Positions 8,423 to 47,880 of a DNA stretch of 59,071 bases are shown piece after piece. The DNA lies in NCBI GenBank assembly GCA_903831865.1, contig CAIKZH010000014.1:1-59071 (forward strand). The letters run 5' to 3'. A program made the position numbers and the translations under genes. The stretch is from an uncultured Coriobacteriia bacterium. Its GTDB lineage: Bacteria > Actinomycetota > Coriobacteriia > Anaerosomatales > PALSA-660. The stretch's first letter is position 1, and each line of letters opens with the position of its first letter. Under the pieces are notes generated by a model. The model ran no database searches, was not told the DNA's origin, and saw only the letters and a program-made list of their open reading frames with translations.

Positions 8423-9088
8423 CTATTCCTTGAACCCGAGCAGGCGCTCGAGCTTCTCGGCGCTCTCGCGCAGCACGTTGATGTAGAGGGTGTCGTCTTT
8501 CTCGAACGTCGTGCCCGGCTCCGGGAGGATCCCCTTGCCGTGGCGCAGGATCGTGCCCACCGCGATCTCTCCCGGGACCGCCAGGTCTGCGATCCGGTGA
8601 CCGATGAGACCGGCGGGCAGGGGCACCTCCATCATCTCGACGTCCGCATCGCCGTACTGGTACTCGCTGTGCAGATCCGCGTGCGTGACCATGTCGAGCA
8701 GCCGGGTGCTCGTCCAGGTGACCGACGCGATGGTCGAGATACCCAGGCCGCGATAGATCTCGGCGCGACGAGGGTCGTAGATGCGGGCGATGACCTGAGG
8801 GACGCGGTAGTGCTCCTTGGCGGTGCGCGCCGCCACGATGTTGCTGTTGTCGCCCGAGGTGACCGCGGCGAAGCAGTCGGCGTCGCGGATGCCCGCGTCC
8901 TCGAGCACGTCACGGTCGAAGACCGTGCCGATGAACTTCTGGCCCATGATCTCCTCGGACGGGTCGCAATCGAACACGAGCGGGTCCTGGTCGATCACGG
9001 ACACGGTGTGCCCTTCGAACTCCAGCATCCGGGCGAGATAGCGGCCTACACGGCCGTATCCGCCGATGACCACGTGCAACCGGTGCAT
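8423..9088 (-). CDS. trkA: Trk/Ktr potassium uptake NAD-binding subunit (second paralog)
   Basis: VVIGGYGRVGRYLARML Rossmann motif, TrkA-N/TrkA-C layout. Its stop is immediately adjacent to the start of the next gene. Confidence 0.85.
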   Translation of the reverse strand: MHRLHVVIGGYGRVGRYLARMLEFEGHTVSVIDQDPLVFDCDPSEEIMGQKFIGTVFDRDVLEDAGIRDADCFAAVTSGDNSNIVAARTAKEHYRVPQVIARIYDPRRAEIYRGLGISTIASVTWTSTRLLDMVTHADLHSEYQYGDADVEMMEVPLPAGLIGHRIADLAVPGEIAVGTILRHGKGILPEPGTTFEKDDTLYINVLRESAEKLERLLGFKE

Positions 9089-9105
9089 CGCGCGTCACCT
9101 CGCTT

Positions 9106-17894: not shown

Positions 17895-18022
17895 GTCCCA
17901 CGTCTCCCCTCGATGGCTGCCCGGGTGGGGCAGGGTCCCTCGGACAGCATCCTAGCGGAGAGTCGTGACACCGGCGTGTGGCGCCTCCCCGTCCGGCGCT
18001 CAGCCCTGCTCCGGCATGCCCC

Positions 18023-18055
18023 TTGCACTAGTCCATGCGCATATGCGAATATACT
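18023..18055 (+). promoter_or_regulatory. Candidate promoter/operator upstream of the first arsR-family gene
   Basis: An AT-rich island, unusual for this window, contains TTGCAC (18023-18028), the 10-bp perfect palindrome CGCATATGCG (18038-18047) and TATACT (18050-18055). The 21-nt hexamer spacing is not ideal. Confidence 0.3.
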
Positions 18056-18091
18056 TGCGACGAGGGGGATACGCCCCACGGGAGGTGCCCG

Positions 18092-18409
18092 ATGGACCCG
18101 GACTTCTACTGCATGCACTCCGCGCTGTGCAAGACGCTGGCGAACGAGAAGCGCCAGATGATCCTGGACGCGCTGCGCTGTGGCGAGTCGAGCGTGACCG
18201 ACCTCGTGGAGCGCACCGGCATCTCCCAGCCCAACATCTCGCAGCACCTCTCTCTGATGCGCGCGAACGGGGTCGTGCGGTCGCGACGCGACGGCACGCG
18301 CGTGCTCTACGAGATCAGCAACCCCAAGCTCATCCAGGCGTTCGACCTCATCACCGAGGTCATGCGGGAAACGATCGAGGAACGCTCGCGTGGCGCGAGG
18401 AGCGCCTGA
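18092..18409 (+). CDS. ArsR/SmtB-family metalloregulator
   Basis: Winged-HTH core LANEKRQMILDALRCGESSVTDLVERTGISQPNISQHLSLMRANGVV. ATG 18092 lies after GGGAGG; the track ORF begins at 18035. Confidence 0.85.
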   Translation: MDPDFYCMHSALCKTLANEKRQMILDALRCGESSVTDLVERTGISQPNISQHLSLMRANGVVRSRRDGTRVLYEISNPKLIQAFDLITEVMRETIEERSRGARSA

Positions 18410-18438
18410 GCTCGGTAGCGACAAGGAGGAAGAAGCCA

Positions 18439-18975
18439 GTGACACCGGATGTTGCACAGGCGATGGAACAGGTGAACGCGGTCGCGTCAGCGCCCGACGA
18501 CCGCCGCAAGAAGATCTCGATGGTGGTCATGAGCGGCGACATGGACAAGCTCTTCGGTGCCTTCATCATCGGCACCGGCGCGGCGGCCATGGGCATGGAA
18601 GTGACCATGTTCTTCACGTTCTGGGGGCTGCGCGCGCTCAAGCGCGCGGATGCGAAGACCGGGACGACCTTCTTCGGCAAGATGATGGGTCTGATGTACG
18701 GCGGCGGCATCGAGAAGGCCAGCCCGTCCAAGTTCTCCTTCGGCGGCATGGGCCGCTGGATGTTCGGCAAGATGATGGGGGCGCACAACGTGGCCACACT
18801 TCCACAGTTGCGTGACCTCGCCATCGACCTGGGCATCAACATGTACGGCTGCCAGATGTCCATGGACGTCATGGAGATCCCGCAGGAATCGTTCGTCAAG
18901 GGCGTCAAGGACCCGGTGGGCGTCGGCTTCTTCATCGCCGAGGCGCAGGAGTCCCAGGTCACCCTTTTCATCTAG
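18439..18975 (+). CDS. DsrE2-type (DsrE/DsrF-like, DrsE_2) protein
   Basis: GTG 18439 lies after AAGGAGGAAG. ISMVVMSGDMDKLFGAFIIGTGAAAMGMEVTMFFTFWGL...GCQMSMDVM are typical of DsrE2-like proteins found beside TusA. Confidence 0.75.
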   Translation: MTPDVAQAMEQVNAVASAPDDRRKKISMVVMSGDMDKLFGAFIIGTGAAAMGMEVTMFFTFWGLRALKRADAKTGTTFFGKMMGLMYGGGIEKASPSKFSFGGMGRWMFGKMMGAHNVATLPQLRDLAIDLGINMYGCQMSMDVMEIPQESFVKGVKDPVGVGFFIAEAQESQVTLFI

Positions 18976-19016
18976 CCGTCGGACGGCGCCGCCGCCCACC
19001 ACCCGAGAGAGAGGCT

Positions 19017-19262
19017 TTGACGATGAGCGACACGAAACCCGATCTGGAGCTCGACCTGCGCGGTCTGCTGTGCCCGATGCCGATGGTCAAGGTGTCACAG
19101 AACATCAGCAAGGTGCCCGTCGGCGGCACGGTGCGAGCCGTCGCGACCGACGCGGGCTCCATGGCCGATATCCCCGCGTGGGCGAAGTCGACCGGCAACG
19201 AGGTCGTGCAGGCGGAGAAGGTCGGCAGCGAGTACGTGTTCCTCGTCAAGCGTGTGAAGTAG
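19017..19262 (+). CDS. tusA: TusA/SirA-family sulfur carrier protein
   Basis: LDLRGLLCPMPMVKV carries the conserved CP-x-P cysteine motif. The size is about 80 aa. Confidence 0.85.
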   Translation: MTMSDTKPDLELDLRGLLCPMPMVKVSQNISKVPVGGTVRAVATDAGSMADIPAWAKSTGNEVVQAEKVGSEYVFLVKRVK

Positions 19263-19272
19263 AGGACGGGAC

Positions 19273-19995
19273 ATGGACCTGTTCTCCTTCCTGGTCTCCG
19301 GGATCGGCGTCTACGTGGCGCTTGTCGTGTTCACCCTGGGCATGGCGTGGCGCGTATGGCAGTGGATGCGGACGCCGAAGTCGCCCGTCCGCCTCGGCCT
19401 CTTCCCCAAGCCGAAGAGCGGGCTGGGGAGGTTCGGCAAGCTGCTGAAAGACACCTTCATCGCCCCGCAATCGGTCGAGCAGGCCGCGCCTCTCATGGCG
19501 GCCGCCTACGCGTTCCATCTCGCGGCGCTCGGCGCCTTCGTCGGGCACCTGCGTCTCGTCCACGAGTTCACGCCGCTCGTGAGCATCCTCGGTGTGGAAG
19601 GCATGAACACGTTCGCCGCCTGGTCGGGCGGGATCGCGGGCGTGGTCATGCTCCTGGCGATCCTCTTCTGGATCGGACGGCGCACCTCCGGGGCCTACAA
19701 GAACCTCTCGACGCCGGAGGACTTCCTACTGCTTGGGCTGCTCCTTGGCGTCGTGCTGCTCGGTGACCATCTGCGGTTCGTGGGGGGACTCCACGCGGCG
19801 ACCTACGAGGCATGGTTCGCGAGCCTGGTGGCGTTGCGGCCTGCGTTCCCGCCGGCGCTCGCGGCCTCGGCCACGAGATGGGCGCTCGACTGGCACATGC
19901 TGTTCGTGGACGCGTTCCTGATCTACTTCCCGTTCAGCAAGCTCACCCACGCGATCGGCGCGTTCACGGGCAACCTCGTGCGGAGCTCTGACTGA
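19273..19995 (+). CDS. NarI/DsrM/HdrE-like membrane di-heme cytochrome b subunit
   Basis: About 5-6 TM helices with conserved His (FHLAALGAFVGHLRLV, LGDHLRF, FSKLTHAIG), as in the nitrate reductase gamma-like family. Its stop is 1 nt before the next start. Confidence 0.75.
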   Translation: MDLFSFLVSGIGVYVALVVFTLGMAWRVWQWMRTPKSPVRLGLFPKPKSGLGRFGKLLKDTFIAPQSVEQAAPLMAAAYAFHLAALGAFVGHLRLVHEFTPLVSILGVEGMNTFAAWSGGIAGVVMLLAILFWIGRRTSGAYKNLSTPEDFLLLGLLLGVVLLGDHLRFVGGLHAATYEAWFASLVALRPAFPPALAASATRWALDWHMLFVDAFLIYFPFSKLTHAIGAFTGNLVRSSD

Positions 19996-19996
19996 T

Positions 19997-21310
19997 ATGG
20001 AGAAGCAGGAGTTGGAAACCATCATCGGCACCCTCGGCAAGAGGATGAACCGGCAGCTCAAGGAGTACCTGGACGTCTGCGTGCGCTGCGCGATCTGCAA
20101 GGACGCGTGCCACCAGTACGTGGCCACCCAGGACATGACCTACCTGCCGGCTCACCGGGCGGAGCTGGTGCGCGCGGTCTATCGCAAGTACTTCACGAAG
20201 GCGGGCCAGTTCATGCCGGCGGTCTACGAGGCCCGCGACCCCGACGAGCACCTGCTCGACGACCTCTACAGGTCGACCTACGCCTGCACGGGCTGTCGCC
20301 GGTGCATGTACTACTGCCCGTTCTCGATCGACACGCAGTGGGTGATCTCCGCGGCGAAGGCCATGCTCATCGCAGCTGGTCGCGGCAACGAGATGCTCGG
20401 CCAGCTCGCGGACGCGGCTCTGTTCAAGGGCGACAACATCGAGATGTTCCGAGACAACCTGGTCGAGGGCTTCCGGGAGATCGAGACCCAGGTGCGGGAC
20501 ATCACGAAGAACCCGGAGGCTGAGATCCCGGTGGACCGCCAGGGCGCCGACATGCTGTACGTCGCGCTCGCTGGTTCGCATTCGATCCTGCCGGCGGCGA
20601 TCATCTTCAACGAGGCGAAGGCGAGCTGGACGCTCTCCATGTTCGAGGCGGCCAACTACGGCTTCTTCTTCGGGGACCCCGACAAGGCCAGGCTCATCGC
20701 CAAGCGCTTCATGGACGAAGCCAAACGCCTCGGCGTGAAGGAGGTCGTGATCACCGAGTGCGGCCACGCCTACCGCGTCGCTGAGCTGTTCTACGAGGCA
20801 TGGGCGAAGGAGAGGATGCCGTTCAAGGTCGTGCATATCCTCGAAGTCATCGATCGCTACGTGAAGGAAGGGCGCATCAAGGTCGACCCACGCGGCATCA
20901 GGGAGAAGGTCACCTACCACGACCCCTGCCAGATCGGCCGCAACGGCGGCATCTACGAGCAGCCGCGGGACATCGTGAAGGCCATCGCTCCGGACTTCGT
21001 CGACATGACGCCCAATCGCGAGAAGCAGTGGTGCTGCGGCGGTGGCGGTGGGATCGTCGCGATGGAGGAGTTCAACGAGGTGCGCCTCAAGAGCGGCGAC
21101 ATGAAAGTCGAGCAGATCAAGGCCACAGGCGCGAGCGTGCTCGCGTGCCCGTGCGAGAACTGTCGCCTGCAGATAGGCGAGCTCAACGAGGTCCACGACC
21201 TCGGATTGCGAGTGGTTCCGGTCATGGACCTTGTGGTCGAGGCGATGGGCTTCGGGCACGCGGCCGGCACCACCGGCGACGAGCGCGACGCCGCCGAGGC
21301 GGTCGTCTGA
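19997..21310 (+). CDS. HdrD/DsrK-like Fe-S oxidoreductase (2x[4Fe-4S] plus CCG domains)
   Basis: CVRCAICKDAC and CTGCRRCMYYCP cluster motifs. CCG-domain pattern YHDPC...WCCGGGGG...CPCENC. Confidence 0.85.
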   Translation: MEKQELETIIGTLGKRMNRQLKEYLDVCVRCAICKDACHQYVATQDMTYLPAHRAELVRAVYRKYFTKAGQFMPAVYEARDPDEHLLDDLYRSTYACTGCRRCMYYCPFSIDTQWVISAAKAMLIAAGRGNEMLGQLADAALFKGDNIEMFRDNLVEGFREIETQVRDITKNPEAEIPVDRQGADMLYVALAGSHSILPAAIIFNEAKASWTLSMFEAANYGFFFGDPDKARLIAKRFMDEAKRLGVKEVVITECGHAYRVAELFYEAWAKERMPFKVVHILEVIDRYVKEGRIKVDPRGIREKVTYHDPCQIGRNGGIYEQPRDIVKAIAPDFVDMTPNREKQWCCGGGGGIVAMEEFNEVRLKSGDMKVEQIKATGASVLACPCENCRLQIGELNEVHDLGLRVVPVMDLVVEAMGFGHAAGTTGDERDAAEAVV

Positions 21311-21425: not shown

Positions 21426-21791
21426 ATGCGAAAGGTGCTGTTGCAAGTGGCTTCACGGCTCGCTCACGGGACCCGGACCGCCGCGCGAACCGCGTCGGGT
21501 TCGAGGCTCGACGCCGCGCTCAAGGCGCTCGCGTGCGAGCAGAGGCGCGAGATCATCCGATTGCTCAGTGAGTGCACTCCCGACTTCGACAAGACCTGCT
21601 GCGATGCGGAGGAGTTGTGCGCGTGCAAGCTGGTCGAGCGGCTCGGCCTGGCGCAATCGACAGTCTCTCATCACATGTCGGTCCTGCAGCGTGCCGGACT
21701 TGTGGGTGCACGCAAGGATGGACTTTGGGTGCACTACACGCTCCGCCGCGATGTGCTGCGGGACGTGGCTGAGGCGCTCAAGCACCTGTAG
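21426..21791 (+). CDS. ArsR/SmtB-family metalloregulator (second copy)
   Basis: LACEQRREIIRLL...CACKLVERLGLAQSTVSHHMSVLQRAGLV winged-HTH, plus a Cys-rich stretch (CCDAEELCAC). The start may be a downstream GTG (21447) because the operator-like site abuts the ATG. Confidence 0.85.
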   Translation: MRKVLLQVASRLAHGTRTAARTASGSRLDAALKALACEQRREIIRLLSECTPDFDKTCCDAEELCACKLVERLGLAQSTVSHHMSVLQRAGLVGARKDGLWVHYTLRRDVLRDVAEALKHL

Positions 21792-21833
21792 GCGGTCGGC
21801 GCGGCTTCGCGAGGGCCGCTTCTTTCAGCATCG

Positions 21834-21857
21834 CTAGTTCGACGACTATCGATATAG
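21834..21857 (+). promoter_or_regulatory. Operator-like imperfect inverted repeat, copy 2 (CTAGTTCGA-N6-TCGATATAG)
   Basis: The half-sites match 7 of 9 positions as an inverted repeat. It lies 24 nt upstream of the Trx-like gene start, followed by GGAGGA. Confidence 0.5.
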
Positions 21858-21880
21858 GCGTCACGAGATGGAGGAAGCAG

Positions 21881-22123
21881 ATGGTCATCAAGGTGCTCGG
21901 ATCGGGATGCGCGAACTGTCAGAAGCTTGAGGCCCTGGCGGCAAAGGTGGTGTCTGACCTTGGCCTCGACGCCGACGTCGTCAAGGTCACCGACATCGGC
22001 CAGATCATGGCGTACGGCGTGATGTCGACTCCGGCTCTCGTGATCGACGAGGAGCTCAAGGTCGCTGGCCGTGTCCCGACCTACGACGAGGTCGTTGCAC
22101 TGCTGCAGCGGTCCGCCCACTAG
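21881..22123 (+). CDS. Small thioredoxin-fold protein (redox-active disulfide protein 2 / Thioredoxin_3-like)
   Basis: MVIKVLGSGCANCQKLE... has a CxxC directly after beta1. About 80 aa. This type is typically found beside PF03773-type permeases. Confidence 0.85.
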   Translation: MVIKVLGSGCANCQKLEALAAKVVSDLGLDADVVKVTDIGQIMAYGVMSTPALVIDEELKVAGRVPTYDEVVALLQRSAH

Positions 22124-22151
22124 CAGTCAGGTCGCCGACTGGAGGCGTTCG

Positions 22152-23129
22152 ATGGACCCGTTCTACCCCCTGCAGCTGCTCGCGAACTGGATCACCTACA
22201 ACGTGCTCGGGCTTTCTGCGACGAGCAAGCTCGGTGCTTCGCTGGACTTCTTCCTCTTCGACGTGCCGAAGGTGCTGATCCTCCTCGCCGTCGTGATCTT
22301 CTTCGTCGCAGTCATCCGGTCGTTCTTCCCCCCGGAGAAGACGAAGAAGCTCCTGTCGCACTCCCGGCTCTACGGGGGCAACATCGCGGCGGCGCTGCTT
22401 GGCATCGTGACGCCGTTCTGCTCCTGCTCCGCCGTCCCTCTCTTCATCGGTTTCGTCGAGAGCGGCGTACCCCTGGGCGTGACGTTCTCATTCCTTGTGG
22501 CCAGTCCGATGATCAACGAGGTGGCGGTGATCCTGCTGCTCGGGCTGTTCGGGTGGCAGATCGCCGCACTCTACGTGGTCTCCGGTCTCCTGATCGCGAT
22601 CACGAGCGGGATCATCATCGGGAAGCTCGGGCTCGAGAGCTGGGTCGAGGACTACGTCTACGAGATCCGCATGGGCGAGGCGGGCAAGCTGCCCGAACAG
22701 ACGTGGCGAGAGCGCCTCGCCTACGCTTTGGGCTACGTGAAGGAGATCGTCGGCAAGGTGTGGCCGTATGTCGTGGTCGGCATCGGCATCGGCGCCGTCA
22801 TGCACGGCTACGTGCCGAACGACTTCCTCGTGAAGTACGCGGGTCCGGGAAACCCCTTGGCTGTGCCGCTGGCGGTGCTCATCGGCGTGCCGCTGTACAG
22901 CAATGCGGCCGGGGTCGTGCCGATCGTGGGCGTGCTGATCGCGAAGGGCGTCTCCGTGGGCACGGCGCTCGCCTTCATGATGGCCGTGGTCGGTCTGTCC
23001 CTTCCCGAGGCGATCATCCTTCGCAAGGTGCTCAAGCCCAAGCTCATCGCCCTGTACTTCGGGATCAACGCGGTCGGCATCGTCGCGATCGGCTACCTGT
23101 TCAACCTGGTCATCCCGCTCGCGAGATAG
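22152..23129 (+). CDS. PF03773-type (ArsP/YraQ-like) permease
   Basis: ATG 22152 lies after GGAGG. Polytopic protein with the TPFCSCSAVPLFIGF motif characteristic of this permease family. Confidence 0.8.
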   Translation: MDPFYPLQLLANWITYNVLGLSATSKLGASLDFFLFDVPKVLILLAVVIFFVAVIRSFFPPEKTKKLLSHSRLYGGNIAAALLGIVTPFCSCSAVPLFIGFVESGVPLGVTFSFLVASPMINEVAVILLLGLFGWQIAALYVVSGLLIAITSGIIIGKLGLESWVEDYVYEIRMGEAGKLPEQTWRERLAYALGYVKEIVGKVWPYVVVGIGIGAVMHGYVPNDFLVKYAGPGNPLAVPLAVLIGVPLYSNAAGVVPIVGVLIAKGVSVGTALAFMMAVVGLSLPEAIILRKVLKPKLIALYFGINAVGIVAIGYLFNLVIPLAR

Positions 23130-23143
23130 GACGGTCGAAGGAG

Positions 23144-23626
23144 ATGCAGGTGTCGGATTGGATCATGGTGGGCCTCGGCGTCGCGGCGCTCGGGCTGTCG
23201 TTTGCCAAGGATCGCGGCAAGACCCGTACGGCCGTGCGCGTAGGGCTCAAGCAGTTCGTGGCGATGCTGCCGTTCTTCATCGCGGTGTTCGGTGTCATCG
23301 GCCTGCTCGAGGTGCTGCTCGCCCCTCATCAGGTGCAGTCGTTACTCGGCCCGCAGCAAGGAGTGCTTGCGCCTATCTACGCGGCCCTGTTCGGGGGGCT
23401 TGCAACGGGCCCGCCTGCAGCGGTGTTCCCGCTCGGGAGGTACTTGCTCGGCCAACACGCGAGCATCGCGGCGGTCGCGACCCTGCTGATCGCCTGGGTG
23501 GCCGTGGGGACCGTGTCGCTGCCCGCAGAGGTGCGCTTCTTCGGAGCCAGATTCGCGATCTCACGCTGGGCGCTCACGATGATCGTTTCCGTGGCACTTG
23601 GACTCCTGATGGGGTGGATCCTGTGA
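23144..23626 (+). CDS. Small integral membrane protein, permease-like (paralog A)
   Basis: ATG 23144 lies after GAAGGAG. About 160 aa and 4-5 TM. It shares the pattern G.P..VFPL...LL......A.......W......P.E.R.FG..F with the next gene. Confidence 0.6.
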   Translation: MQVSDWIMVGLGVAALGLSFAKDRGKTRTAVRVGLKQFVAMLPFFIAVFGVIGLLEVLLAPHQVQSLLGPQQGVLAPIYAALFGGLATGPPAAVFPLGRYLLGQHASIAAVATLLIAWVAVGTVSLPAEVRFFGARFAISRWALTMIVSVALGLLMGWIL

Positions 23627-24228
23627 AGCAGCTGATCAAGTGGTCCAGGGCCAACTGGCTCGTGTGGGTGATCGTCATCGCCTATCTCTTGCTGGCAGTG
23701 ACCCGAACACACGTGGCGTCGACGGCTGCGCTCGTCGCGCTGACGACGTTCCGGGATCTCATCGTGACGCTCGTGGTGGTGTTCCTCATCGTCGGGCTGT
23801 TCCAGGTGTGGGTCAGCGAGGACTTCATCGTCCGGCATCTCGGCCAGGATTCGGGGCTCAAGGGGCTGGCGCTCGGCGCGGGGATCGGCACCGTCATCCA
23901 CGGACCGCTCGTGGGCGTGTTCCCGCTGCTCAAGACGCTGCTTGGAAAGGGAGCTCGACTGGGCGTGGTCATCGCCATCGTGTCGACCTGGGCGATCAAG
24001 CTGCCTATGATCCCGCTGGAGATCCGGCTGTTCGGCTGGAAGTTCACGCTTCTGCGCGAGGGTCTGCTGTTCGCATCGGCGTTCATCATGGCGCCTGTGA
24101 TGGAGCTCGCGCTGGGCAAGGACTGGGCACTTCCGAAGGCGGTGGACGCCGTCGAGCCTCTCGCCACTGCCCCCGCCGCGACGGTGCAGTGCACCGAGCC
24201 GCCTGAAGCCGCCGGGGACTGCGCGTGA
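23623..24228 (+). CDS. Small integral membrane protein, permease-like (paralog B)
   Basis: GTG 23623 overlaps the upstream stop (GTGA). About 200 aa. HGPLVGVFPLLKTLLGKGARLGVVIAIVSTWAIKLPMIPLEIRLFGWKF is paralogous to the preceding protein. Confidence 0.6.
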   Translation: MKQLIKWSRANWLVWVIVIAYLLLAVTRTHVASTAALVALTTFRDLIVTLVVVFLIVGLFQVWVSEDFIVRHLGQDSGLKGLALGAGIGTVIHGPLVGVFPLLKTLLGKGARLGVVIAIVSTWAIKLPMIPLEIRLFGWKFTLLREGLLFASAFIMAPVMELALGKDWALPKAVDAVEPLATAPAATVQCTEPPEAAGDCA

Positions 24229-24299
24229 CACCGCCGGCGGCTCGTGGGGCCGGCAAGGAAGAGGAGAACACCGAGCGGCAGGAGAGGACGGGCACGGCC

Positions 24300-24674
24300 A
24301 TGCGGATCAAGGTGATCGAGGGCGGCTGCGGTTGAGGGGGGCCGGTCGTCCCGAGCGGTCCGCTCGGGTCTGCGTCCGAGGGATCGGGCGAGTCGCTTGC
24401 CGACCGTCTGCGGCGATACCTGCACGGTCGCTTCGGGGACGGATTCTCCGTGGAAGCCTCGGACCTGACCTCGCTTTCGCCGGAGGATCGCGGGCCCGTT
24501 CTCGATGCCGTCTGCGAAGGCGCTGAGTTCCCGATGGTGCTTGTCGAGGGCCGGCTCGTTTGCACAGAAGGCACTGACGCCGTCCGCGTAATGGAGGCGG
24601 TCGATCTCGCCCTGGGCCAGCAGCGAGAGGCGTGGTGTCACCCGCAACCGACCACCTGCGCACCGGAAGACTGA
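24300..24674 (+). CDS. ArsD/thioredoxin-fold protein with an in-frame UGA (candidate selenocysteine at codon 12). The conservative alternative is CDS 24450..24674
   Basis: ATG 24300 opens MRIKVIEGGCG, followed by TGA at 24333-24335. The same frame stays open into track ORF 24450..24674. A hairpin sits 14 nt after the TGA. The distal part (FSVEASDLTSLSPEDRGPVLDAVCEGAEFPMVLVEGRLVCTEG) has an ArsD/Trx-like layout. Confidence 0.5.
24350..24368 (+). promoter_or_regulatory. SECIS-like RNA hairpin
   Basis: CCCGAGCG (24350-24357) pairs perfectly with CGCUCGGG (24361-24368). The apical loop is GUC, or GGUCC if the closing pair opens. The loop G is 23 nt after the UGA. Confidence 0.45.
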
Positions 24675-24766
24675 CCGCTCGGCGGGCGATGTCGCCCACT
24701 AGCTGCATCTCGCATATAGTGTTGGCAGCATCTACGTGCGGTCGTCATCTCGAGGAGACCTCCACC

Positions 24767-25195
24767 ATGGTTCCAGAAGAGCAGGAGACGTGCTGCCGAG
24801 GCGCCGGCGCCATGCACGGACCGGAGCGCCCATGCTGCCGCCGCGCGGGAGGCGGTGGCGGCGGCGCCCTGGTCGAGCCCGCGGCCCTCGCCGCGCTGCT
24901 CAATCGCGGTGCGCACGGCTACGACGTGCGTCGTGCGATCAGTGAACTGACCGGTGGCGAGCTGGAGGTCGACGCCGGGGGGTTGTACCGAGTGCTGAGG
25001 CGCCTCGAGGCCGAGGGCTTCGTCGTGTCGGCTTGGAGCGAGGGAGATTCCGGCCCGCAGCGCAGGGACTACGAGATCACGTCTGAAGGCAGGGAGCTCG
25101 CGGAGGACTGGCTCTCGCACTTGCGGGAGCGGCAGCGAGTGGCGGGCCTGCTGGCGGATGTCCTGTCCGCGGCCCTCGCGCCGAGCAAGGTCTAG
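24767..25195 (+). CDS. PadR-family transcriptional regulator with Cys/Gly-rich N-terminal extension
   Basis: ATG 24767 lies after GAGGAG. The HGYDVRRAISELTGGELEVDAGGLYRVLRRLEAEGFV winged helix is preceded by ETCCRGAGAMHGPERPCCRRAGGGGGG. Confidence 0.85.
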   Translation: MVPEEQETCCRGAGAMHGPERPCCRRAGGGGGGALVEPAALAALLNRGAHGYDVRRAISELTGGELEVDAGGLYRVLRRLEAEGFVVSAWSEGDSGPQRRDYEITSEGRELAEDWLSHLRERQRVAGLLADVLSAALAPSKV

Positions 25196-25216: not shown

Positions 25217-25270
25217 ATGCCCAGATATAACGGAACGGGTCCCAGTCTCGGGCGCGGGTGCGCGAGATGA
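25217..25270 (+). CDS. 17-codon mini-ORF (MPRYNGTGPSLGRGCAR), translationally coupled to the NifX-like gene
   Basis: ATG 25217 lies 6 nt after GAGAGGAGAAG. Its TGA (25268-25270) overlaps the ATG at 25267 of the next gene as ATGA. The N-terminal MPR-x-N-G-TGP pattern resembles (from memory) DUF5320 small proteins. Confidence 0.35.
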   Translation: MPRYNGTGPSLGRGCAR

Positions 25271-25629
25271 CGATCGCAGTGTCCTCGCTCGGGCCGACAC
25301 TCGACGATCGGGTGGACGAGAGGTTTGGCCGCGCCGCCTACCTGCTGATCGTCGACGAGGGCACGCTTGATGTCCACGCGGTCGACAACAGCGCGAATCG
25401 AGATGCGCTGCAGGGGTCGGGTCTCGGCGCGGCCGAGATCACGAGCGAACACGGAGCCACCGCCGTGATCACCGGCCACCTCGGCCCAAAGGCTTTCAGC
25501 GCCCTGCAGCGCTGCGGCATCAGCGGCTACGACGGCACCGGGATGACGGTGCGCGAGGCCGTGGAGAAACAGAGAACGGGCCAGCTCGTCCGGCTTGCCG
25601 AAGGCGAGTCACACGCTGGTATGGACTGA
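25267..25629 (+). CDS. NifX/NifB-C-terminal-like (dinitrogenase FeMo-cofactor-binding domain family) protein 1
   Basis: MTIAVSS...RFGRAAYLLIVD...AVITGHLGPKAFSALQRCGISGY fits the Nitro_FeMo-Co domain pattern. The track ORF begins at GTG 25258. Confidence 0.8.
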   Translation: MTIAVSSLGPTLDDRVDERFGRAAYLLIVDEGTLDVHAVDNSANRDALQGSGLGAAEITSEHGATAVITGHLGPKAFSALQRCGISGYDGTGMTVREAVEKQRTGQLVRLAEGESHAGMD

Positions 25630-25655
25630 CCGGAGCAGCAAGGCGATGGGAGCCA

Positions 25656-26036
25656 ATGATGCCTGACAGCATGGTGCTGGCGGTGCCCTCGATGGGCGAA
25701 GGCGGACTCGAAGCGGAGCGGTCGGCGCACTTCGGTCACTGCGACTGTTTCACGCTCGTCGACGTGGCCGATGGTGAGATCGGGGCGGTACGGGTCGTGG
25801 CGAATCCTCCGCACGAGGAAGGTGGGTGTTTGCGGCCGGTCAACCTGCTCGCGTCACATGGCGTGAACGCCCTGATCGCCGCCGGGATGGGCGCGCGGCC
25901 CCTGGCCGGATTCAACGACGCCGGCATCACGGTCTACTTCGAGACCGAGACGCCGGGCATCGGCGACGCGGTGCGGCGTGTGCTCGCCGGCTCCGTGGAG
26001 AAGATGGACGCCCGGCACGTCTGCGGCGGCCACTAG
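25656..26036 (+). CDS. NifX/NifB-C-terminal-like protein 2
   Basis: MVLAVPS...HFGHCDCFTLVDV...GVNALIAAGMGARPLAGFNDAGITVY follows the same domain pattern. Confidence 0.8.
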   Translation: MMPDSMVLAVPSMGEGGLEAERSAHFGHCDCFTLVDVADGEIGAVRVVANPPHEEGGCLRPVNLLASHGVNALIAAGMGARPLAGFNDAGITVYFETETPGIGDAVRRVLAGSVEKMDARHVCGGH

Positions 26037-26038
26037 GC

Positions 26039-26956
26039 GTGTCCGCCGAGTCGCAGAAGGGCGACGGCTCGCCCTTCACGTTGGCCGTCGCCTCGGGCAA
26101 GGGCGGCACCGGCAAGACGCTCGTGGCAACCAACATGGCCGCCTTGTCGTCAGCGGCCGGTCTGAGGGTCGTGCTCGTCGACTGCGACGTGGAGGCGCCC
26201 AACGACCACCTGTTCCTGCGCCGGGCCGAGGAGTCGGCATCGGCCGTAGACGTGCTCGTCGCCGACGTTGACGCGTCGCAGTGCGTCGCGTGCGGTGCGT
26301 GCCGGGACGCGTGCGCGTTCGGCGCGATACGCATCCTCGGCGACTCGGCGGTGGTCTTCGACGACCTGTGCCACGGATGCGGGCTCTGCACCGACGTGTG
26401 CCCGTCCGGCGTGATCACCGAGGTGCCCCGACGGGTGGGCGAGGTCGTCACGGGACTCACGGCAGAAGCGGGCGCGCTCATGCTCGTGACGGGCAGGCTC
26501 GACGTCGGGCAGGTGAAGTCCCCTTCGGTGATCCGGGCCACTCGGGCCGCGGCTGCCGCCTGTGCTGCCGACCTCGTGGTACTCGACGCCCCACCGGGCG
26601 TCGCCTGTTCTGCGGTCGCCGCGGTGCGCGGTGCCGACGCGCTGCTGCTGGTCGCCGAGCCGACGGTCTTCGGGCTCCACGACCTGGAACTCAGTCTTCG
26701 ATTGGGCGGCGAGCTACGGCTGCCGATGGGCGTCGTCGTCAATCGGTCGCCGGCGACAGGTGGCGAGGCGGTCGACCAGCTGTGCGAGAGGCGGGGCGTC
26801 CCGGTGCTCGCGCACATCCCCTTCGACAGGCGCATCGCCGAGACCTACGCACGCGGGGAGCTGGTCGCGCACGCCTTGCCCGATGTCGGTGCGCTGATCG
26901 CATCGCTTCCTGGCGCCATGCGCCTGGCGGCTTCGCCGTCGGCGGCGCCGCGATGA
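26039..26956 (+). CDS. MinD/ParA-superfamily P-loop ATPase with inserted 2x[4Fe-4S] ferredoxin domain (COG1149-type), copy 1
   Basis: GTG 26039 lies 2 nt after the upstream stop. Walker A ASGKGGTGKT. CVACGACRDAC and CHGCGLCTDVCP are inserted after the P-loop. Confidence 0.85.
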   Translation: MSAESQKGDGSPFTLAVASGKGGTGKTLVATNMAALSSAAGLRVVLVDCDVEAPNDHLFLRRAEESASAVDVLVADVDASQCVACGACRDACAFGAIRILGDSAVVFDDLCHGCGLCTDVCPSGVITEVPRRVGEVVTGLTAEAGALMLVTGRLDVGQVKSPSVIRATRAAAAACAADLVVLDAPPGVACSAVAAVRGADALLLVAEPTVFGLHDLELSLRLGGELRLPMGVVVNRSPATGGEAVDQLCERRGVPVLAHIPFDRRIAETYARGELVAHALPDVGALIASLPGAMRLAASPSAAPR

Positions 26957-27885
26957 AGAGCATCGTCGTCGCGTCAGGCAAGGGTGGCACGGGCAAGACC
27001 ACCGTCTCCGCCCTGTTCGCACGTCTGGCTTCGGAGCGCACGAAGGTCGTTGTCGTCGATGCGGACGTGGAGGCGTCGAACCTGCCGCTGGCCCTGCGCG
27101 CGACCGACGCGACATGCGCAGCCTTTGCGGGGGGCGCACGCGCGGCGATCGACGCCGCGAGATGCACGGGGTGCCGGATGTGCATGCAGGTGTGCCGCTT
27201 CCAGGCGATCTCCCCCGGCACCGAGTGCGTGTGCGTCGTGGACCGGTTCGCGTGCGAGGGTTGCGGGAGCTGCGCCACATGGTGTCCGAACGGCGCAGTG
27301 CGGATGGCACCGTCCACCGCGGGTGAGGCGTGCCTCGGCAGCGGCGCGACCGGCCCGATCGCGTACGGTCGGCTCGAGCCCGGCGAGGACCTCTCCGGCC
27401 GCCTCGTCACCGAGGTCAGACGTCTTGGGGCGGAGGAGGCAGAGCGGCAAGGCGCCGACATGCTGCTGATAGACGGACCTCCGGGGATAGGGTGTCCGCT
27501 CATCGCGGCGGTCGCGAGCACCGACCTGGTCGTCGCGGTCGCCGAGCCTTCCGTCTCGGGCGCCCATGACCTGGGCCGGCTGGCCGGCGTGGCCACGCGG
27601 CTCGGACTCCCCATGCGCGTCATGCTCAACAAGGCCGACCTCTCCTCGGTCGGGGCATCGCAGGTGCGCGATCTGTGCGCGTCGAGGGGCCTCCCGCTGC
27701 TCGTGGAGGTGCCGTTCGACACGGCCATCGCTGATGTGAACAGCGCGGGCGCCGCGGAGGCGCCGGCCTTGGCCGCAGAAGCCGGCCCGGGCGTGCGGGC
27801 AGTGAGGTCGGCGTGGCAAGCGCTGGAGCGAGAACTGGGTCTTGAGGAATGGGCCGCTGGAGTCCAACAGCAGCCGATCGAGTAG
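26953..27885 (+). CDS. MinD/ParA-superfamily P-loop ATPase with inserted ferredoxin domain, copy 2
   Basis: ATG 26953 overlaps the upstream stop (ATGA). ASGKGGTGKT; CTGCRMCMQVC and CEGCGSCATWCP. Confidence 0.85.
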   Translation: MKSIVVASGKGGTGKTTVSALFARLASERTKVVVVDADVEASNLPLALRATDATCAAFAGGARAAIDAARCTGCRMCMQVCRFQAISPGTECVCVVDRFACEGCGSCATWCPNGAVRMAPSTAGEACLGSGATGPIAYGRLEPGEDLSGRLVTEVRRLGAEEAERQGADMLLIDGPPGIGCPLIAAVASTDLVVAVAEPSVSGAHDLGRLAGVATRLGLPMRVMLNKADLSSVGASQVRDLCASRGLPLLVEVPFDTAIADVNSAGAAEAPALAAEAGPGVRAVRSAWQALERELGLEEWAAGVQQQPIE

Positions 27886-27898
27886 GAAGAGGCACGCC

Positions 27899-28645
27899 AT
27901 GCACATCATCGCGGTCATGAGCGGGAAGGGCGGCGTGGGCAAGTCCTTCGTCGCCACGGGGCTTGCGGCGGCTTTGCAGCGCCGCACGGGCCGCACGGCC
28001 GTGCTCGACGCGGACATCACCGGGGCGTCGGTCCCGCACATGCTCGGCGTGCCCAAGAGCGGGCGCGTCGATGCGGAGGGCAGGCTTCTTCCCGGAATGA
28101 GCCCCGACGGCATACGGGTGTCGTCGATGAGCCTGATGCTGCCTGCTGACGAAGAGACACTCATCTGGCGCGGCCCGCTGATCTCCAAGGCGATAGACGA
28201 GTTGTTCACCCTGACCGATTGGGGCGACGCCGAGTACCTCGTGGTGGACATGCCCCCGGGAACCTCGGACGCCGCGCTCACTGTGTTGGACAAGCTCAAG
28301 CCGGAGGGTGTCGTGATCGTGACGACTCCGCAGGACATGGTCACGAAGATCGCCCACCGTTCTCATCACATGGTGCGGGAGATGGGCGGCAACGTGATCG
28401 GGCTCGTAATGAACATGGCGTTCGTCCGTTGTCCCAAGTGCGGCGAGCAGATCGACACCTTCGGGTCCGTTCGAAGCGATGCGGACGCAGAGCTTCCTGT
28501 CCTGGCGACACTCCCTCTCGTCATGGAGTGGGCGGCGCTCGCCGACAGCGGCCAGGCGGCGAAGATCGCCACCGACGAGTTCGACGCTCTTGCGGAAGCG
28601 GTGCTTGCCGGTCTCAAGGTCGCGGGGACGGCATCCGCGAGCTAG
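27899..28645 (+). CDS. Mrp/NBP35/ApbC-family Fe-S cluster carrier ATPase
   Basis: ATG 27899 lies after GGAAGAGG. Deviant Walker A SGKGGVGKS, DMPPGTSD switch, CPKCG (CxxC) motif. Confidence 0.85.
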   Translation: MHIIAVMSGKGGVGKSFVATGLAAALQRRTGRTAVLDADITGASVPHMLGVPKSGRVDAEGRLLPGMSPDGIRVSSMSLMLPADEETLIWRGPLISKAIDELFTLTDWGDAEYLVVDMPPGTSDAALTVLDKLKPEGVVIVTTPQDMVTKIAHRSHHMVREMGGNVIGLVMNMAFVRCPKCGEQIDTFGSVRSDADAELPVLATLPLVMEWAALADSGQAAKIATDEFDALAEAVLAGLKVAGTASAS

Positions 28646-28683
28646 CCTGGAGCGATCAGCCGGAAAGCACGAACGGAGCTCCC

Positions 28684-30123
28684 GTGACCACGGATACCAC
28701 ACGCTACCCAGCTGCGCTCGACGCCTTCCTCTCGGCATCGAGTGCCTACAGGGCCACGGCTGCGATCGACGCCCTACGCGCGCAGGACTACTCGCGTCTC
28801 GATCGTGCCGGACACGTCTACCTCGACTACACGGGCTCGGGTCTCTACGCCGAGTCGCAGCTTCGGCGGCATCAGGCGTTGCTCACTGACGGAGTCTTCG
28901 GGAATCCGCACTCGAAGAACCCGACGTCGCTCGCGAGCACGGCCATGGTCGAGGCTGCGCGCGCCGCGGTGCTCGAGTTCTTCCGGGCGTCCGCCGACGA
29001 GTACGAGGTGATCTTCACCGCCAACGCCAGCGCCGCGCTCAAGCTCGTGGGCGAGTCGTACACGTTCGCCGCGGGCTCAAGGTTCCTGCTGACCTACGAC
29101 AACCACAACTCGGTCAACGGGATCCGGGAGTTCGCACGAGCGAGGGGCGCGACCGTGACGTACCTGCCTGTGGGTGCGTCGGCACTGCGCGTGGACCCCG
29201 AGATGGTGCGCGCGGAACTCGCAAGTCCCCTGTCAGGCGCCTCCAACCTGTTCGCATACCCGGCTCAGTCGAACTTCTCGGGGGTGCAGCACCCGCTTGC
29301 GTGGATCGACGAAGCGCACGAGCGTGGATGGGATGTCATCCTCGACGCTGCAGCGTTCGCGCCCACGAACCGCCTCGATCTGTCCGTCGTGAAGCCCGAC
29401 TTCGTTCCCCTGTCCTTCTACAAGATGTTCGGGTACCCCACCGGGGTCGGGGCGCTCCTGGCACGGCGCAGTGCGCTGGCCAAGCTCGCGCGTCCCTGGT
29501 TCGCGGGCGGGACGATCACGATCGCATCCGTTCAGGGCGAGGGCTGGCATCGACTGGCACCGGGCGCCCCCGGCTTCGAGGACGGGACGGCTGACTTCCT
29601 CGGCCTGCCGGCCGTCACTATCGGGCTCGAGCACCTGAGCGCCGTGGGGATCGACGTCGTTCATGAGCGCGTCACCGCACTCGCGGGCTGGCTCCTCGAG
29701 CGGGCGCGCGACCTGACCCATGGGAACGGCGCGCCCATGGTCCGCGTCTTTGGCCCGCAGGACATGACTGCGCGCGGGGCGACCATCGCGTTCCACCTGC
29801 TTGATCCCGCAGGAGAGACGTTCGACGTTCATCGCATGGAGTTGCTCGCCGGCGAGCGGGGGATATCTCTTCGAACCGGGTGCTTCTGCAACCCCGGAGA
29901 CGGGGTGGTCGCCCATCGGATCACAGCCGACGACATGGCGGCGTGCTTCGTCGAGCAGCGCGCGGTCACCTTCGAGGAGTGCGACGCGCTGATCCGCACG
30001 GCCACCGGGAAGATGCCCAACACCATGCGTGTGTCGTTGGGGCTCGTCTCGGACTTCGCGGATGTCTTTCGGTTCGTCGAGTTCGTCGAGCGATACAGAG
30101 ACGTCAGCGCTCGCGAGATCTGA
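28684..30123 (+). CDS. Class V PLP-dependent enzyme of the molybdenum-cofactor-sulfurase (MOCOS N-terminal, NifS-like) type
   Basis: YLDYTGSGLYAESQL...GNPHS...IFTANASAALKLVGE, PLP-Lys context SFYKMFGYPTGVGALL, active-site Cys context RTGCFCNPG. No MOSC domain follows. Confidence 0.8.
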   Translation: MTTDTTRYPAALDAFLSASSAYRATAAIDALRAQDYSRLDRAGHVYLDYTGSGLYAESQLRRHQALLTDGVFGNPHSKNPTSLASTAMVEAARAAVLEFFRASADEYEVIFTANASAALKLVGESYTFAAGSRFLLTYDNHNSVNGIREFARARGATVTYLPVGASALRVDPEMVRAELASPLSGASNLFAYPAQSNFSGVQHPLAWIDEAHERGWDVILDAAAFAPTNRLDLSVVKPDFVPLSFYKMFGYPTGVGALLARRSALAKLARPWFAGGTITIASVQGEGWHRLAPGAPGFEDGTADFLGLPAVTIGLEHLSAVGIDVVHERVTALAGWLLERARDLTHGNGAPMVRVFGPQDMTARGATIAFHLLDPAGETFDVHRMELLAGERGISLRTGCFCNPGDGVVAHRITADDMAACFVEQRAVTFEECDALIRTATGKMPNTMRVSLGLVSDFADVFRFVEFVERYRDVSAREI

Positions 30124-36890: not shown

Positions 36891-38228
36891 GTGCGTGGAA
36901 GCAGCATCCCCGTGACGTCGCGTCTTCATCCGAGGTCCACGGCCACCGCCGCGGTCCGTCGTCGGATCGCCGTCCTGACCCTGCTGGTTCTCGCTTTCAC
37001 GCTGCTCGGCGCCGCGGGCGCGCTCGCGATCACACGCGACACGGTTCTGGCGCGGGCGCAGACGTGGGTCGACAGCCCGGTGCCCTACAGCCAGGCCAGA
37101 TACCATGGCGGCTACCGCACCGACTGCTCCGGCTATGTCTCCATGTGCTGGGGGACCGGGGTCTCGTGGTCCACGCGGACCTTCTCTCACGTCGGACATC
37201 GCACCAGCGCCGCCTATCTCAAGCCCGGCGACGCGATGCTGAAGGCCGGCACCCACATCCGGCTCTTCTACGGTTGGGCGGACGCTGCGCACACGACCTA
37301 TGTGTCATACGAGCAGACCGGGCCGCATACGAAGTCGAGCGTGCGGTACATGGCCAACGACCTTGCCAGCGGCTATGTTCCCTTCCGCTACAACGCCATC
37401 CAGGACAGTCCGCCGTCGCGCAACGCCCTCCTGAACGGCTCGTTCAACGTGTGGTCGTACGGGGACCCGGTGTGGTGGTCGGTAGGCGGATCCGGTCCGA
37501 TGACCGCCGTGACGCAGCGCACCGATCTTGCGAAGGCGGGCAGGTTCTCGCTGGAGCTGGACAACACTGCCGCCGATCCCTCGCGCTTCGCGGAGATCGA
37601 GCAGACCGCGGCTGTCTCACCTGACGCGATCTACACGCTGTACGCGTGGGCGAGGACCGCCGGCGATCCCCGCGGCGTTCAGGTACGCCTGCGCTATCTG
37701 GACGCTTCAGGAGGATCGCTCGTCGACACGACGACTACGGGGGACATCTGGGGCGTCGGCAACACCCGCTTCACCCAGATGTCGCTGCGCGCAGGCGCGC
37801 CGACGGGCACCGTGACAGCGGCGGTGGAGTTGCGTGTGGCGGGCGGCGTCGACGCGTCAGGCACGCCGGGGAACTCGGCGGTGTTCGACGAGATCTCCCT
37901 CGTGCGGCCGCAGGCCACGATCACCATCCACACGGACGGCACGACTGCGCGTTCCGAAAGTGTTCCTGCCTTGAGCGGCTCAGTCACCCCGACGAGCGCC
38001 GTGGGCGCGGAGATCGTCGTGTACGTGAAGAAGCCGGGATCCAGTCGCTGGAGCTACTCGTCGAACCGCACGGTCTACGCCTCCGGCGACACAGCAGCGT
38101 GGCAGTACAAGTACCGCTTCAAGCCGGGGATGGCCAAGGGCGTCTACGGCTTCAAGGCCGAGGTGCCGGCGCTGGGCGGGTACCTGGGTGCGATGTCGCC
38201 GACGACGGTGAGCGTGCGGCTGAGGTAG
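36891..38228 (+). CDS. Secreted NlpC/P60-like (C40) cell-wall hydrolase with carbohydrate-binding-like and Ig-like C-terminal domains
   Basis: Signal/TM segment, then GGYRTDCSGYVSMCW (catalytic Cys context). A CBM-like middle region follows. The C-terminal ~100-aa domain is shared with two other proteins in the window. Confidence 0.7.
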   Translation: MRGSSIPVTSRLHPRSTATAAVRRRIAVLTLLVLAFTLLGAAGALAITRDTVLARAQTWVDSPVPYSQARYHGGYRTDCSGYVSMCWGTGVSWSTRTFSHVGHRTSAAYLKPGDAMLKAGTHIRLFYGWADAAHTTYVSYEQTGPHTKSSVRYMANDLASGYVPFRYNAIQDSPPSRNALLNGSFNVWSYGDPVWWSVGGSGPMTAVTQRTDLAKAGRFSLELDNTAADPSRFAEIEQTAAVSPDAIYTLYAWARTAGDPRGVQVRLRYLDASGGSLVDTTTTGDIWGVGNTRFTQMSLRAGAPTGTVTAAVELRVAGGVDASGTPGNSAVFDEISLVRPQATITIHTDGTTARSESVPALSGSVTPTSAVGAEIVVYVKKPGSSRWSYSSNRTVYASGDTAAWQYKYRFKPGMAKGVYGFKAEVPALGGYLGAMSPTTVSVRLR

Positions 38229-40842: not shown

Positions 40843-41135
40843 GACTTCTCCCTACGCCATTCGCACGCGACAGGGGAAGCGACGCAAGCGGGGTGCCGTT
40901 GCGCGGGCGTCGACAGGAGCGCCCGCCGAGCGGCCGGTCGGGGTTGCGACGAAGTCGACCGCCGGGTGGCAGGCCTACCGACCGTCCGGCATCCGGCTCT
41001 CATGTGTCGCAGACGGCTCGCCGAAGATGTAGCTGCAGGGAGTCGCTTCCAGCTCCTGTGACAAGAGCAAACCCGTCGCGAGGCGGGGACGCAAAGCCGT
41101 GGATCTCCCCCGGGGAGACTGCCTGGTTGCCGAAA

Positions 41136-47743: not shown

Positions 47744-47880
47744 GATGTCTCCTTCGGTGGCGGGCGCCGCATGGCGGCGCGACTCTGTCTGCCTCTGGGG
47801 ACTTACTACCCAGTGACCACCCGACCCTAGAGGGCCCGCTCCACCCCCGCTCCTCCCGGTGAACCTGACGCCAGCCGGGT

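Follow-up and report, generated by a model that had tools for sequence, protein, structure and literature searches.

In fdhF of Escherichia coli, as read in 5,419 genomes, the selenocysteine (Sec) codon UGA is followed after 18 nt by a GGUC loop closed by GCA/UGC. The published model of the bacterial selenocysteine insertion sequence (SECIS; bSECIS for the bacterial form) has a stem of 4–16 bp and a loop of 3–9 nt whose first or second nucleotide is G, lying 16–37 nt from the UGA with a minimum free energy of –7.5 kcal/mol or lower (PMC13188914), and the paper on the SelB crystal structure describes a 6–8 bp stem with a conserved loop G ~20 nt past the UGA (PMC4605307). Among small selenoproteins, Sec.1 and Sec.2 of Brachyspira are clear PF13192 members that carry Sec in a short N-terminal extension and for which Cys homologues exist (2017, PMC5330540). 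A 2026 review of prokaryotic selenoproteomes counts 119 families, most of them with NCBIfam or Pfam identifiers, and the deep-Sep authors point out that pipelines discard candidates without Cys homologues, GrdA alone having previously been thought to lack them. Here we describe a gene at 24300-24674 on the forward strand of a 59,071-nt stretch of DNA from an uncultured Coriobacteriia bacterium (contig CAIKZH010000014.1; hereafter the window) that, judging from sequence comparison, most likely encodes a 124-residue selenoprotein through recoding of an in-frame UGA, a reading to which we assign a probability of roughly 85%. A first-pass annotation of this DNA had proposed the same 124-aa product, with a Cys-Gly-Sec motif created by Sec recoding of UGA 24333, and comparison with relatives supports that proposal. 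The features of the gene are as follows, L004 being a related locus:

24281-24288, + strand: Shine-Dalgarno-like sequence GGAGAGGA, from direct reading, 11 nt upstream of the ATG
24300-24332, + strand: N-terminal segment MRIKVIEGGCG, in which a hydrophobic, beta-strand-like stretch precedes the partner Cys, C10
24333-24335, + strand: in-frame UGA, the proposed Sec codon (U12), in an alignment column shared by 17/17 distinct loci
24349-24387, + strand: 39-nt block 100% identical to L004 (alignment A1, columns 121-159), comprising the hairpin and its 3' flank
24350-24368, + strand: SECIS-like hairpin with an 8-bp stem, CCCGAGCG/CGCUCGGG, and the loop GUC, or with 7 bp and the loop GGUCC
24450-24674, + strand: called open reading frame (ORF) with a GTG start, 74 aa, inside the full frame and presumably an annotation artefact of the UGA

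The positions of the Shine-Dalgarno-like sequence, ATG, TGA, stop, called ORF and hairpin were already in the first-pass annotation, and all are exact on rereading the sequence. From ATG 24300 the frame is interrupted by one TGA alone, beyond which 112 codons run without interruption until the terminal TGA at 24672-24674, giving a candidate coding sequence of 124 codons, with UGA counted as Sec at codon 12, plus the stop. A GAGAGGA/GAGAGAAGGGA motif occupies the equivalent site ahead of the ATG in L004 and in a further related locus, L043. The GTG at 24225 is also in frame and overlaps the upstream stop; it is an unlikely start because the stretch ahead of the ATG is poorly conserved and contains non-triplet insertions and deletions relative to L004. 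The G+C content of third codon positions (GC3) had been offered as a sign that the stretch between the TGA and GTG 24450 is coding. The third positions are indeed G/C-rich there, at 0.79 for 24336-24449, but this is barely above one of the other two frames (0.76 and 0.61) and below the 0.83–0.92 of typical genes, so the argument is weak.

Relatives were sought by a word-indexed search of 5.8 billion proteins, which returned two (74 and 69 aa), and by running HMMER exhaustively on 1.84 billion representatives with the part after the UGA as query, which returned 17 (65–112 aa). Two profile searches added further relatives, again of 65–112 aa and unnamed or 'hypothetical'. A two-sequence alignment (A2) searched against genome contigs and metagenome contigs gave no relatives; a genome scan with alignment A5, built from the second subgroup described below, gave five loci in metagenome-assembled genomes (MAGs; L063-L067), which together with 12 distinct relatives make up the 17 distinct loci whose DNA was read. 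The named carriers are three MAGs labelled Coriobacteriia, two labelled 'Eubacteriales', and Actinobacteria bacterium HGW-Actinobacteria-7. The two MAGs labelled 'uncultured Eubacteriales bacterium' (L064 and L066, binchicken co-assemblies) have 66–69% G+C, and the L064 family protein is nearly identical to the L048 protein. The Eubacteriales label probably served as a placeholder or was assigned in error, Actinomycetota being the more plausible source.

An in-frame TGA stands at the same aligned position in all 17 loci, down to ~30% protein identity, and upstream of the called start each locus has a start codon, then a short peptide that is conserved, then this TGA. The full-length architecture is kept across the 12 distinct relatives and the five MAG loci. 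In alignment A4 the U column is invariant, and the motif consists of a hydrophobic strand, C-x-U and G/S-G, with coding conservation on either side; the Cys stands two residues ahead of U, or one residue ahead in L004 and L043. The first-pass annotation had left open whether homologues would carry Cys or UGA at this position, and the loci read at the DNA level have UGA, never Cys, in 17/17. Its concern that homologues might uniformly start at the equivalent of GTG 24450 is refuted, as they keep the N-terminal strand, the Cys, the TGA and the in-frame sequence that follows. The groups distinguished in alignment A4 are:

Subgroup 1 (window gene/L001-3, L004, L043-46): M[RY][IV]KV[IV][ED]xG(CG or SC)-U-GGP
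Subgroup 2 (L047, L048, L050, L051, L053, L054, L063-67): IIRVVDxD[DE]CS-U-SGGxDP[YH]SDGL...ACGMPV
Subgroup 3 (L055-58, L059/60, L062): VV[KR]LVTE[AT]CG-U-G
Singleton (L061): LLIVDDLACG-U-GGTT

The N-terminal peptides of the relatives, M(Y)VKVVDSGSC, IIRVVDLDDCS, VVKLVTEACG and LLIVDDLACG, are under protein-level selection, because the variation among their codons is synonymous (e.g. AGG/AGA/CGC for the same Arg). The 38 codons from the UGA to GTG 24450 are protein-conserved in frame in L004 and L043 (GGPxxPSGPLGSAS..LAxRLxRxxHxRxGD). The called starts of the homologues use M, L or V, lie 18 to 117 nt past the TGA and are mutually non-homologous. All database entries of the family, including an NCBI 'hypothetical protein', are N-terminal truncations of 65–112 aa without the active site, and truncation at non-homologous starts is the pattern expected because gene callers stop at Sec codons.

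None of the protein searches, among them one whose full-length profile had C in place of U, found a full-length Cys form. The absence of Cys homologues is unusual for a selenoprotein gene, though not disqualifying. An alignment (A3) that placed the UGA opposite the Cys of 'ACGMPV' in apparent Cys relatives was rejected, since the DNA of those relatives has its own upstream TGA. The idea that the hairpin segment is an insertion relative to Cys forms, drawn from the same alignment, was rejected as well, the 'Cys forms' being truncated Sec forms. The ACGMPV Cys of subgroup 2 is an additional Cys, separate from the U column. In L067 (8199-8574 of MAG contig CAWDNM010000005.1) the N-terminus, TGA and hairpin are kept and the frame degenerates ~50 codons on; either this copy is a pseudogene or the sequence holds a frameshift/assembly error.

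The hairpin begins 14 nt past the TGA, where CCCGAGCG (24350-24357) is perfectly paired with CGCTCGGG (24361-24368). The first G of GGUC lies 21 nt past the UGA, the UGA-to-loop distance is 21–22 nt, and the folding energy is –13.9 kcal/mol. With its 8-bp stem and G-led loop, the element fits the published bSECIS model (PMC13188914), bearing out its first-pass description as SECIS-like, and it agrees with the SelB-structure description (PMC4605307). The GGUC loop that the same annotation placed at a similar distance in fdhF was confirmed in the E. coli genomes. Of the 1,517 TGA triplets in the window, only 4 have, at the distance of a SECIS, a perfect 8-bp hairpin whose loop is G-led; the TGA at 24333 is the sole one of the four in a coherent reading frame. 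An exact scan of metagenome contigs for the 19-mer returned 38 matches, all unrelated chance palindromes; the element is thus not a mobile repeat, and its sequence alone is not special. A role as a terminator was rejected after a scan of 23900-25000 gave no terminator-like site.

The constraint on this segment acts at the nucleotide level. L004 has 65% protein identity to the window gene and 76% DNA identity over the gene, and inside the 39-nt block 12/12 amino-acid-identical codons are also codon-identical, as against 30/54 (56%) outside it (P ~9e-4). The 19-nt hairpin is unchanged in L004 and L043. A possible second hairpin (~24373-24388, + strand; GUCCGA-GGGA-UCGGGC) follows the SECIS-like hairpin on its 3' side, still within the 39-nt block, and L004 turns a U.G pair of this second small hairpin into U-A.

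Subgroup 2 has a hairpin with a different stem, the same GGUC-type loop and the same codon register, (N)ACUCGGAC-GGUCU-GUYCGAGU(N), with the loop 27 nt past the UGA and its GGU read as a Gly codon. The sixth pair of this stem is G-C, G.U or A-U. L053 (5938-6000) and L054 (5291-5353) encode the same downstream protein (P0022) and differ by GAC->AAC and TCC->TTC (D->N, S->F), a double nonsynonymous change that in L054 turns a G-C pair into A-U and so forms a natural compensatory pair. Because pairing in subgroup 2 is kept through nonsynonymous compensatory changes, the RNA is conserved at the expense of the peptide. When subgroups 1 and 2 are anchored on the shared GGUC loop (alignment A6, nine distinct sequences), 95.8% of cells are paired and 3/8 pairs have changed on both sides, compared with 9–43% paired in slid registers, and the covariation score is reached by only 1/500 shuffles. 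Conservation of the hairpin in UGA-containing orthologues, which the first-pass annotation had named as a point to be checked, is therefore borne out in L004 and L043 and, with loop anchoring, by covariation with subgroup 2, L062 being the exception.

Several observations weigh against the selenoprotein reading. The folding energy of the window hairpin is no better than that of shuffled sequences in this DNA of 67.6% G+C (z = +0.55 and –0.63). Within subgroup 1 the hairpin is invariant and hence shows no covariation there, and the covariation between subgroups 1 and 2 depends on a loop anchoring that we chose. Subgroup 3 is untidy: in L055 and L059 a CCCGAG/CUCGGG stem is kept, its loops being other than GGUC, and L062 has no hairpin and retains the peptide PESWLGS. 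A few family members known as protein sequences only (e.g. P0006 and P0015) might truly lack the Sec module. Neither the 59-kb window nor the fetched loci contain selA, selB, selD or tRNA-Sec, a dedicated tRNA-Sec search of the window and 18 loci also returning none, and scans of the window and loci for TGA plus hairpin and for TGA plus GGUC loop gave no second selenoprotein gene. The structural model described below does not include strand beta1, and its fold search is not significant. We infer Sec production by the source organism solely from this gene and its relatives; cultured Coriobacteriia are Sec users. On the other side, TGA serves many Pfam-supported genes of the window as their ordinary stop, so the genetic code itself is not reassigned. 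The decisive support for Sec is comparative, not intrinsic.

These comparative data bear differently on the other ways of explaining the locus. If the TGA were a nonsense mutation or a true stop, the locus would be a pseudogene or a truncated gene, and its sole product, if any, would be the 74-aa protein from GTG 24450. Gene callers did annotate the window gene and its relatives as truncated, and the window shows no Sec machinery, but a nonsense mutation would not persist at the same codon in 17 loci spanning ~30–97% identity. The sequence before the TGA and between it and the called starts is moreover conserved in frame as protein, and the non-homology of those starts is at odds with a genuine shorter gene; the comparative data effectively refute a pseudogene. 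Conservation of the TGA, the conserved peptide and the non-homologous starts together exclude a nonsense mutation, and they also make a separate downstream cistron very unlikely. In such a two-cistron arrangement an 11-codon leader would end at the UGA and the hairpin would regulate the downstream protein, whether through translational coupling, attenuation or pausing of the ribosome. Bacteria do have short leader ORFs with hairpins after them, and nucleotide-level constraint on the hairpin and its 3' flank would also be expected of a regulatory RNA. However, the 38-codon stretch ahead of GTG 24450 shows protein-level conservation in L004 and L043, no conserved start codon or Shine-Dalgarno sequence lies past the hairpin and the called starts vary among relatives, the terminator scan of 23900-25000 was negative, and the supposed leader ends in C-x-UGA (C-UGA in L004 and L043) after a strand-like segment, which is the pattern of a redox motif.

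Two further alternatives concern the decoding of the UGA and the role of the hairpin. The UGA may be read through as a residue other than Sec, by near-cognate insertion of Trp, Cys or Arg with stimulation by the hairpin, or by Sec-pathway insertion of Cys at low selenium. Read-through stimulated by a hairpin and misincorporation of Cys at Sec codons both have precedent, and Sec machinery in the source genome is a prediction. This possibility is nonetheless improbable: like that of fdhF, the hairpin has the spacing, stem length and GGUC loop of a SelB-type SECIS, the recoded position falls within a C-x-U redox-type motif, and a sense codon, which an ordinary residue would be expected to show in some lineages, is present in 0/17. 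Alternatively, the hairpin may be incidental, its conservation reflecting the encoded peptide PSGPLGS and any recoding of the UGA being independent of it. Retention of PE(S/A)WLGS in subgroup 3 while L062 loses the pairing is what this would predict, and the 38 chance occurrences of the 19-mer in unrelated metagenome contigs point the same way. It is difficult to reconcile, however, with the frozen synonymous sites of the block (12/12 vs 56% elsewhere), with the survival of pairing in subgroup 2 through nonsynonymous compensatory changes, and with the nature of the segment, a low-complexity Gly/Ser/Pro linker that has no counterpart in the subgroup 2 protein alignment, as expected of a SECIS spacer; we regard an incidental hairpin as very improbable.

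Under the selenoprotein reading, translation would start at ATG 24300, and the hairpin at 24350-24368 would recruit SelB carrying Sec-tRNA(Sec) to UGA 24333, selenocysteine replacing termination, as we infer from the well-established bacterial mechanism. The product would have a Cys-Gly-Sec centre directly after the N-terminal beta-strand. The Gly/Ser/Pro-rich linker that follows would then exist largely to encode the SECIS, and the remainder, alpha1-beta2-alpha2-[invariant Pro]-beta3-Gly-beta4-alpha3, would fit a thioredoxin-like fold. Either a selenosulfide redox centre or a site for soft metal(loid)s could be formed by the C-x-U pair, perhaps together with the near-invariant Cys of 'GRLVC(T/A/S)G'. 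Such a site would act with the ArsR-regulated Thioredoxin_3 (Trx_3)/ArsP_1 permease module encoded nearby, as a small thiol-based chaperone or an oxidoreductase. This functional assignment, whether as redox centre or as metal(loid) site, is put forward with lower confidence than Sec insertion.

No Pfam or NCBIfam model matches the read-through protein, nor any of the 12 family members at E values up to 10, and a profile search of the PDB gave nothing significant. An AlphaFold2 model of residues 13-124, which leaves beta1 outside (mean predicted local distance difference test score, 74.8), shows helix, helix, beta-hairpin and helix, the element order expected of a thioredoxin-like fold. The best fold matches for these residues are glutaredoxins and glutathione S-transferase N-domains, and they are weak (E ~1, template modelling score ~0.35). 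In alignment A4, P78 (before beta3) and G84 (between beta3 and beta4) are invariant and C88, within 'GRLVC(T/A/S)G', is near-invariant; these residues appear to fit the cis-Pro/beta3-turn-beta4 signature of glutaredoxin-like (Grx-like) and ArsD-like proteins. A thioredoxin-like fold in which the C-x-U centre follows beta1 is thus a reasonable, somewhat favoured prediction. The family label implied by the first-pass description as an ArsD/thioredoxin-fold protein is not supported: there is no Pfam match to ArsD or Thioredoxin_3, and hhalign gives a probability of 3.5% against ArsD, over 20 columns of the beta3-beta4 segment only (with a hand-entered ArsD sequence), and 1.4% against the neighbouring Trx_3 protein, over strand beta1 only. 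As far as the sequences indicate, membership of either family is unsupported.

The neighbourhood of the gene, with domains assigned by Pfam, is as follows, the part upstream of the gene (21426-24228) being probably its functional setting:

21426-21791, + strand: ArsR-family regulator
21881-22123, + strand: Thioredoxin_3 protein
ending at 23129, + strand: ArsP_1 permease
23158-24228, + strand: split ArsP_1-type permease
24767-25195, + strand: PadR regulator
25258-25629 and 25656-26036, + strand: two NifX-like genes with Nitro_FeMo-Co domains

The split permease is called as two overlapping genes (158 and 201 aa) in L001, and the same two-gene arrangement is found in L045, L055 and L058; because it is conserved across loci, the split is not a sequencing error. 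An ArsP_1 gene adjoins the family gene in L004, L043/45, L055, L059/60 and L061, in the last together with ArsR and Trx_3, and a NifX-like gene adjoins it in L004, L043, L050, L059/60 and L062. Most subgroup 2 genes lie in other contexts. The recurrent context suggests a role with the thiol/metalloid-handling permease module. No clear arsA partner is adjacent, the only trace being a 'faint' Pfam ArsA_ATPase match on a downstream MinD/ParA-type Fe-S ATPase.

Together with the genes after it, the NifX-like pair forms a cluster (25258-30123, + strand) with the same order in L001, L004 and L043: two NifX-like genes, two MinD-type (MinD/ParA) ATPases with 4Fe-4S domains, an ATPase of the Mrp/ParA type and an aminotransferase class V enzyme of 479 aa (cysteine desulfurase-like or selenocysteine lyase-like). 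A class V enzyme near a selenoprotein gene is possibly of interest. The intergenic region between the candidate selenoprotein gene and padR holds a ~37-nt element (24699-24735, + strand; CTAGCTGCATCTCGCATATAGTGTTGGCAGCATCTAC) that contains the repeated motif GC(T/A)GCATCT and is near-identical in L004, the surrounding intergenic DNA not being so; it probably serves the PadR-NifX-MinD operon as operator/promoter. A sulfur-relay-like cluster (17956-21310, + strand), also present in L001/L043, lies upstream of the ArsR/Trx_3/ArsP_1 module and comprises genes for a helix-turn-helix regulator, DsrE_2, TusA, a DsrM-like Nitrate_red_gam protein and an HdrD-like CCG Fe-S oxidoreductase; at a position that is Sec in some organisms, the HdrD-like protein carries Cys (WCCGGGGG).

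Elsewhere in the window, a cyclic di-GMP-I riboswitch aptamer (Rfam RF01051, 59.8 bits, E = 3e-9) is present at 41056-41134 on the + strand, the region also holding signalling genes of GGDEF-EAL and HD-GYP type (38155-40851 and 47869-50358). Two tandem TrkA-N/TrkA-C genes (7739-9094, – strand) share one frame with a TAG stop alone between them; as far as checked, they are adjacent paralogues and not one read-through gene.

No Pfam- or NCBIfam-modelled family of the 2026 catalogue matches the protein, and the remaining families are set apart by motif and domain. The proposed selenoprotein family is an uncatalogued one of uncultured Actinomycetota, from MAGs mostly labelled Coriobacteriia. That it has gone unnoticed would be explained by the filtering out, in current pipelines, of selenoproteins without Cys homologues, and families of this kind are a blind spot of present selenoprotein methods. 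The family also exposes a systematic annotation error, its entries being N-terminally truncated fragments without the active site. Its association with ArsR, Trx_3, ArsP_1 and NifX-like genes provides a testable lead on the function of a widespread permease/thioredoxin module.

Among the known systems, fdhF resembles the window gene in having an in-frame UGA with a hairpin inside the coding region and a GGUC-type loop (18 nt past the UGA in fdhF, 21 nt in the window and 27 nt in subgroup 2), and the 6–8 bp stem and fit to the bSECIS consensus are those of fdhF-type recoding. The two differ in that the window protein is unrelated and its stem has another sequence, without a bulged U; SelB binding is here predicted. 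Like deep-Sep family DG (NF049953) and DF (NF049942), and like the NCBIfam selenoprotein models of Haft, the window gene encodes a small bacterial protein with an in-frame TGA and a SECIS. The local 'G-U-G-G-P' motif of DG is identical to that of the window protein, and DF has U directly after the N-terminal strand. However, neither is homologous to the window protein: hhalign probabilities are 0.3% for DG and 0.1% for DF, both of which have Cys homologues and come from Desulfobacterota, and no NCBIfam model matches any of the 12 family members even at E = 10.

Sec.1 and Sec.2 of Brachyspira share with the window protein a small size, a CxU or UxC motif near the N-terminus and an annotation that truncates or misses the gene, and the Brachyspira theme recurs in the Thioredoxin_3 gene found in the same operon-like cluster in the window (21881-22123) and in L061. 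Unlike Sec.1 and Sec.2, the window family has no PF13192 match, carries Sec directly after beta1 and has no Cys form among the proteins searched.

The likeness to ArsD (PF06953), partly tested, is taken to be a resemblance of pattern. ArsD is also small, with a hydrophobic N-terminal strand followed by a soft-ligand pair (C12-C13 in ArsD; C-x-U or C-U here), and many family members have a further Cys a few to ~35 residues on. Relative to the C12/C13/C18 site of ArsD, an extra Cys is found in subgroups 2 and 3 (ACGMPV; GGGSC) and none in the window protein. The 'P-hhhh-x-G-x-hh-x-x-G' beta3-beta4 segment aligns with ArsD GLPLLLLDGETVMAG in hhalign, and the gene likewise adjoins ArsR-family and ArsP_1-type genes. 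Unlike ArsD, the window protein has no significant sequence similarity to that family, lacks the third Cys and has no arsA partner identified alongside, and a literature search found no paper linking ArsD with selenocysteine. It is conceivable, if rather unlikely, that these proteins form an obligate-Sec family, with no Cys form in existence among ~15 billion predicted proteins, that is confined to anaerobic high-G+C Actinomycetota and in which the C-x-U pair and the conserved beta4 Cys bind a metalloid or organometalloid and hand it to the adjacent ArsP_1-type permease. If so, the family would be a selenium-based functional analogue of ArsD, invisible to pipelines that require Cys homologues.

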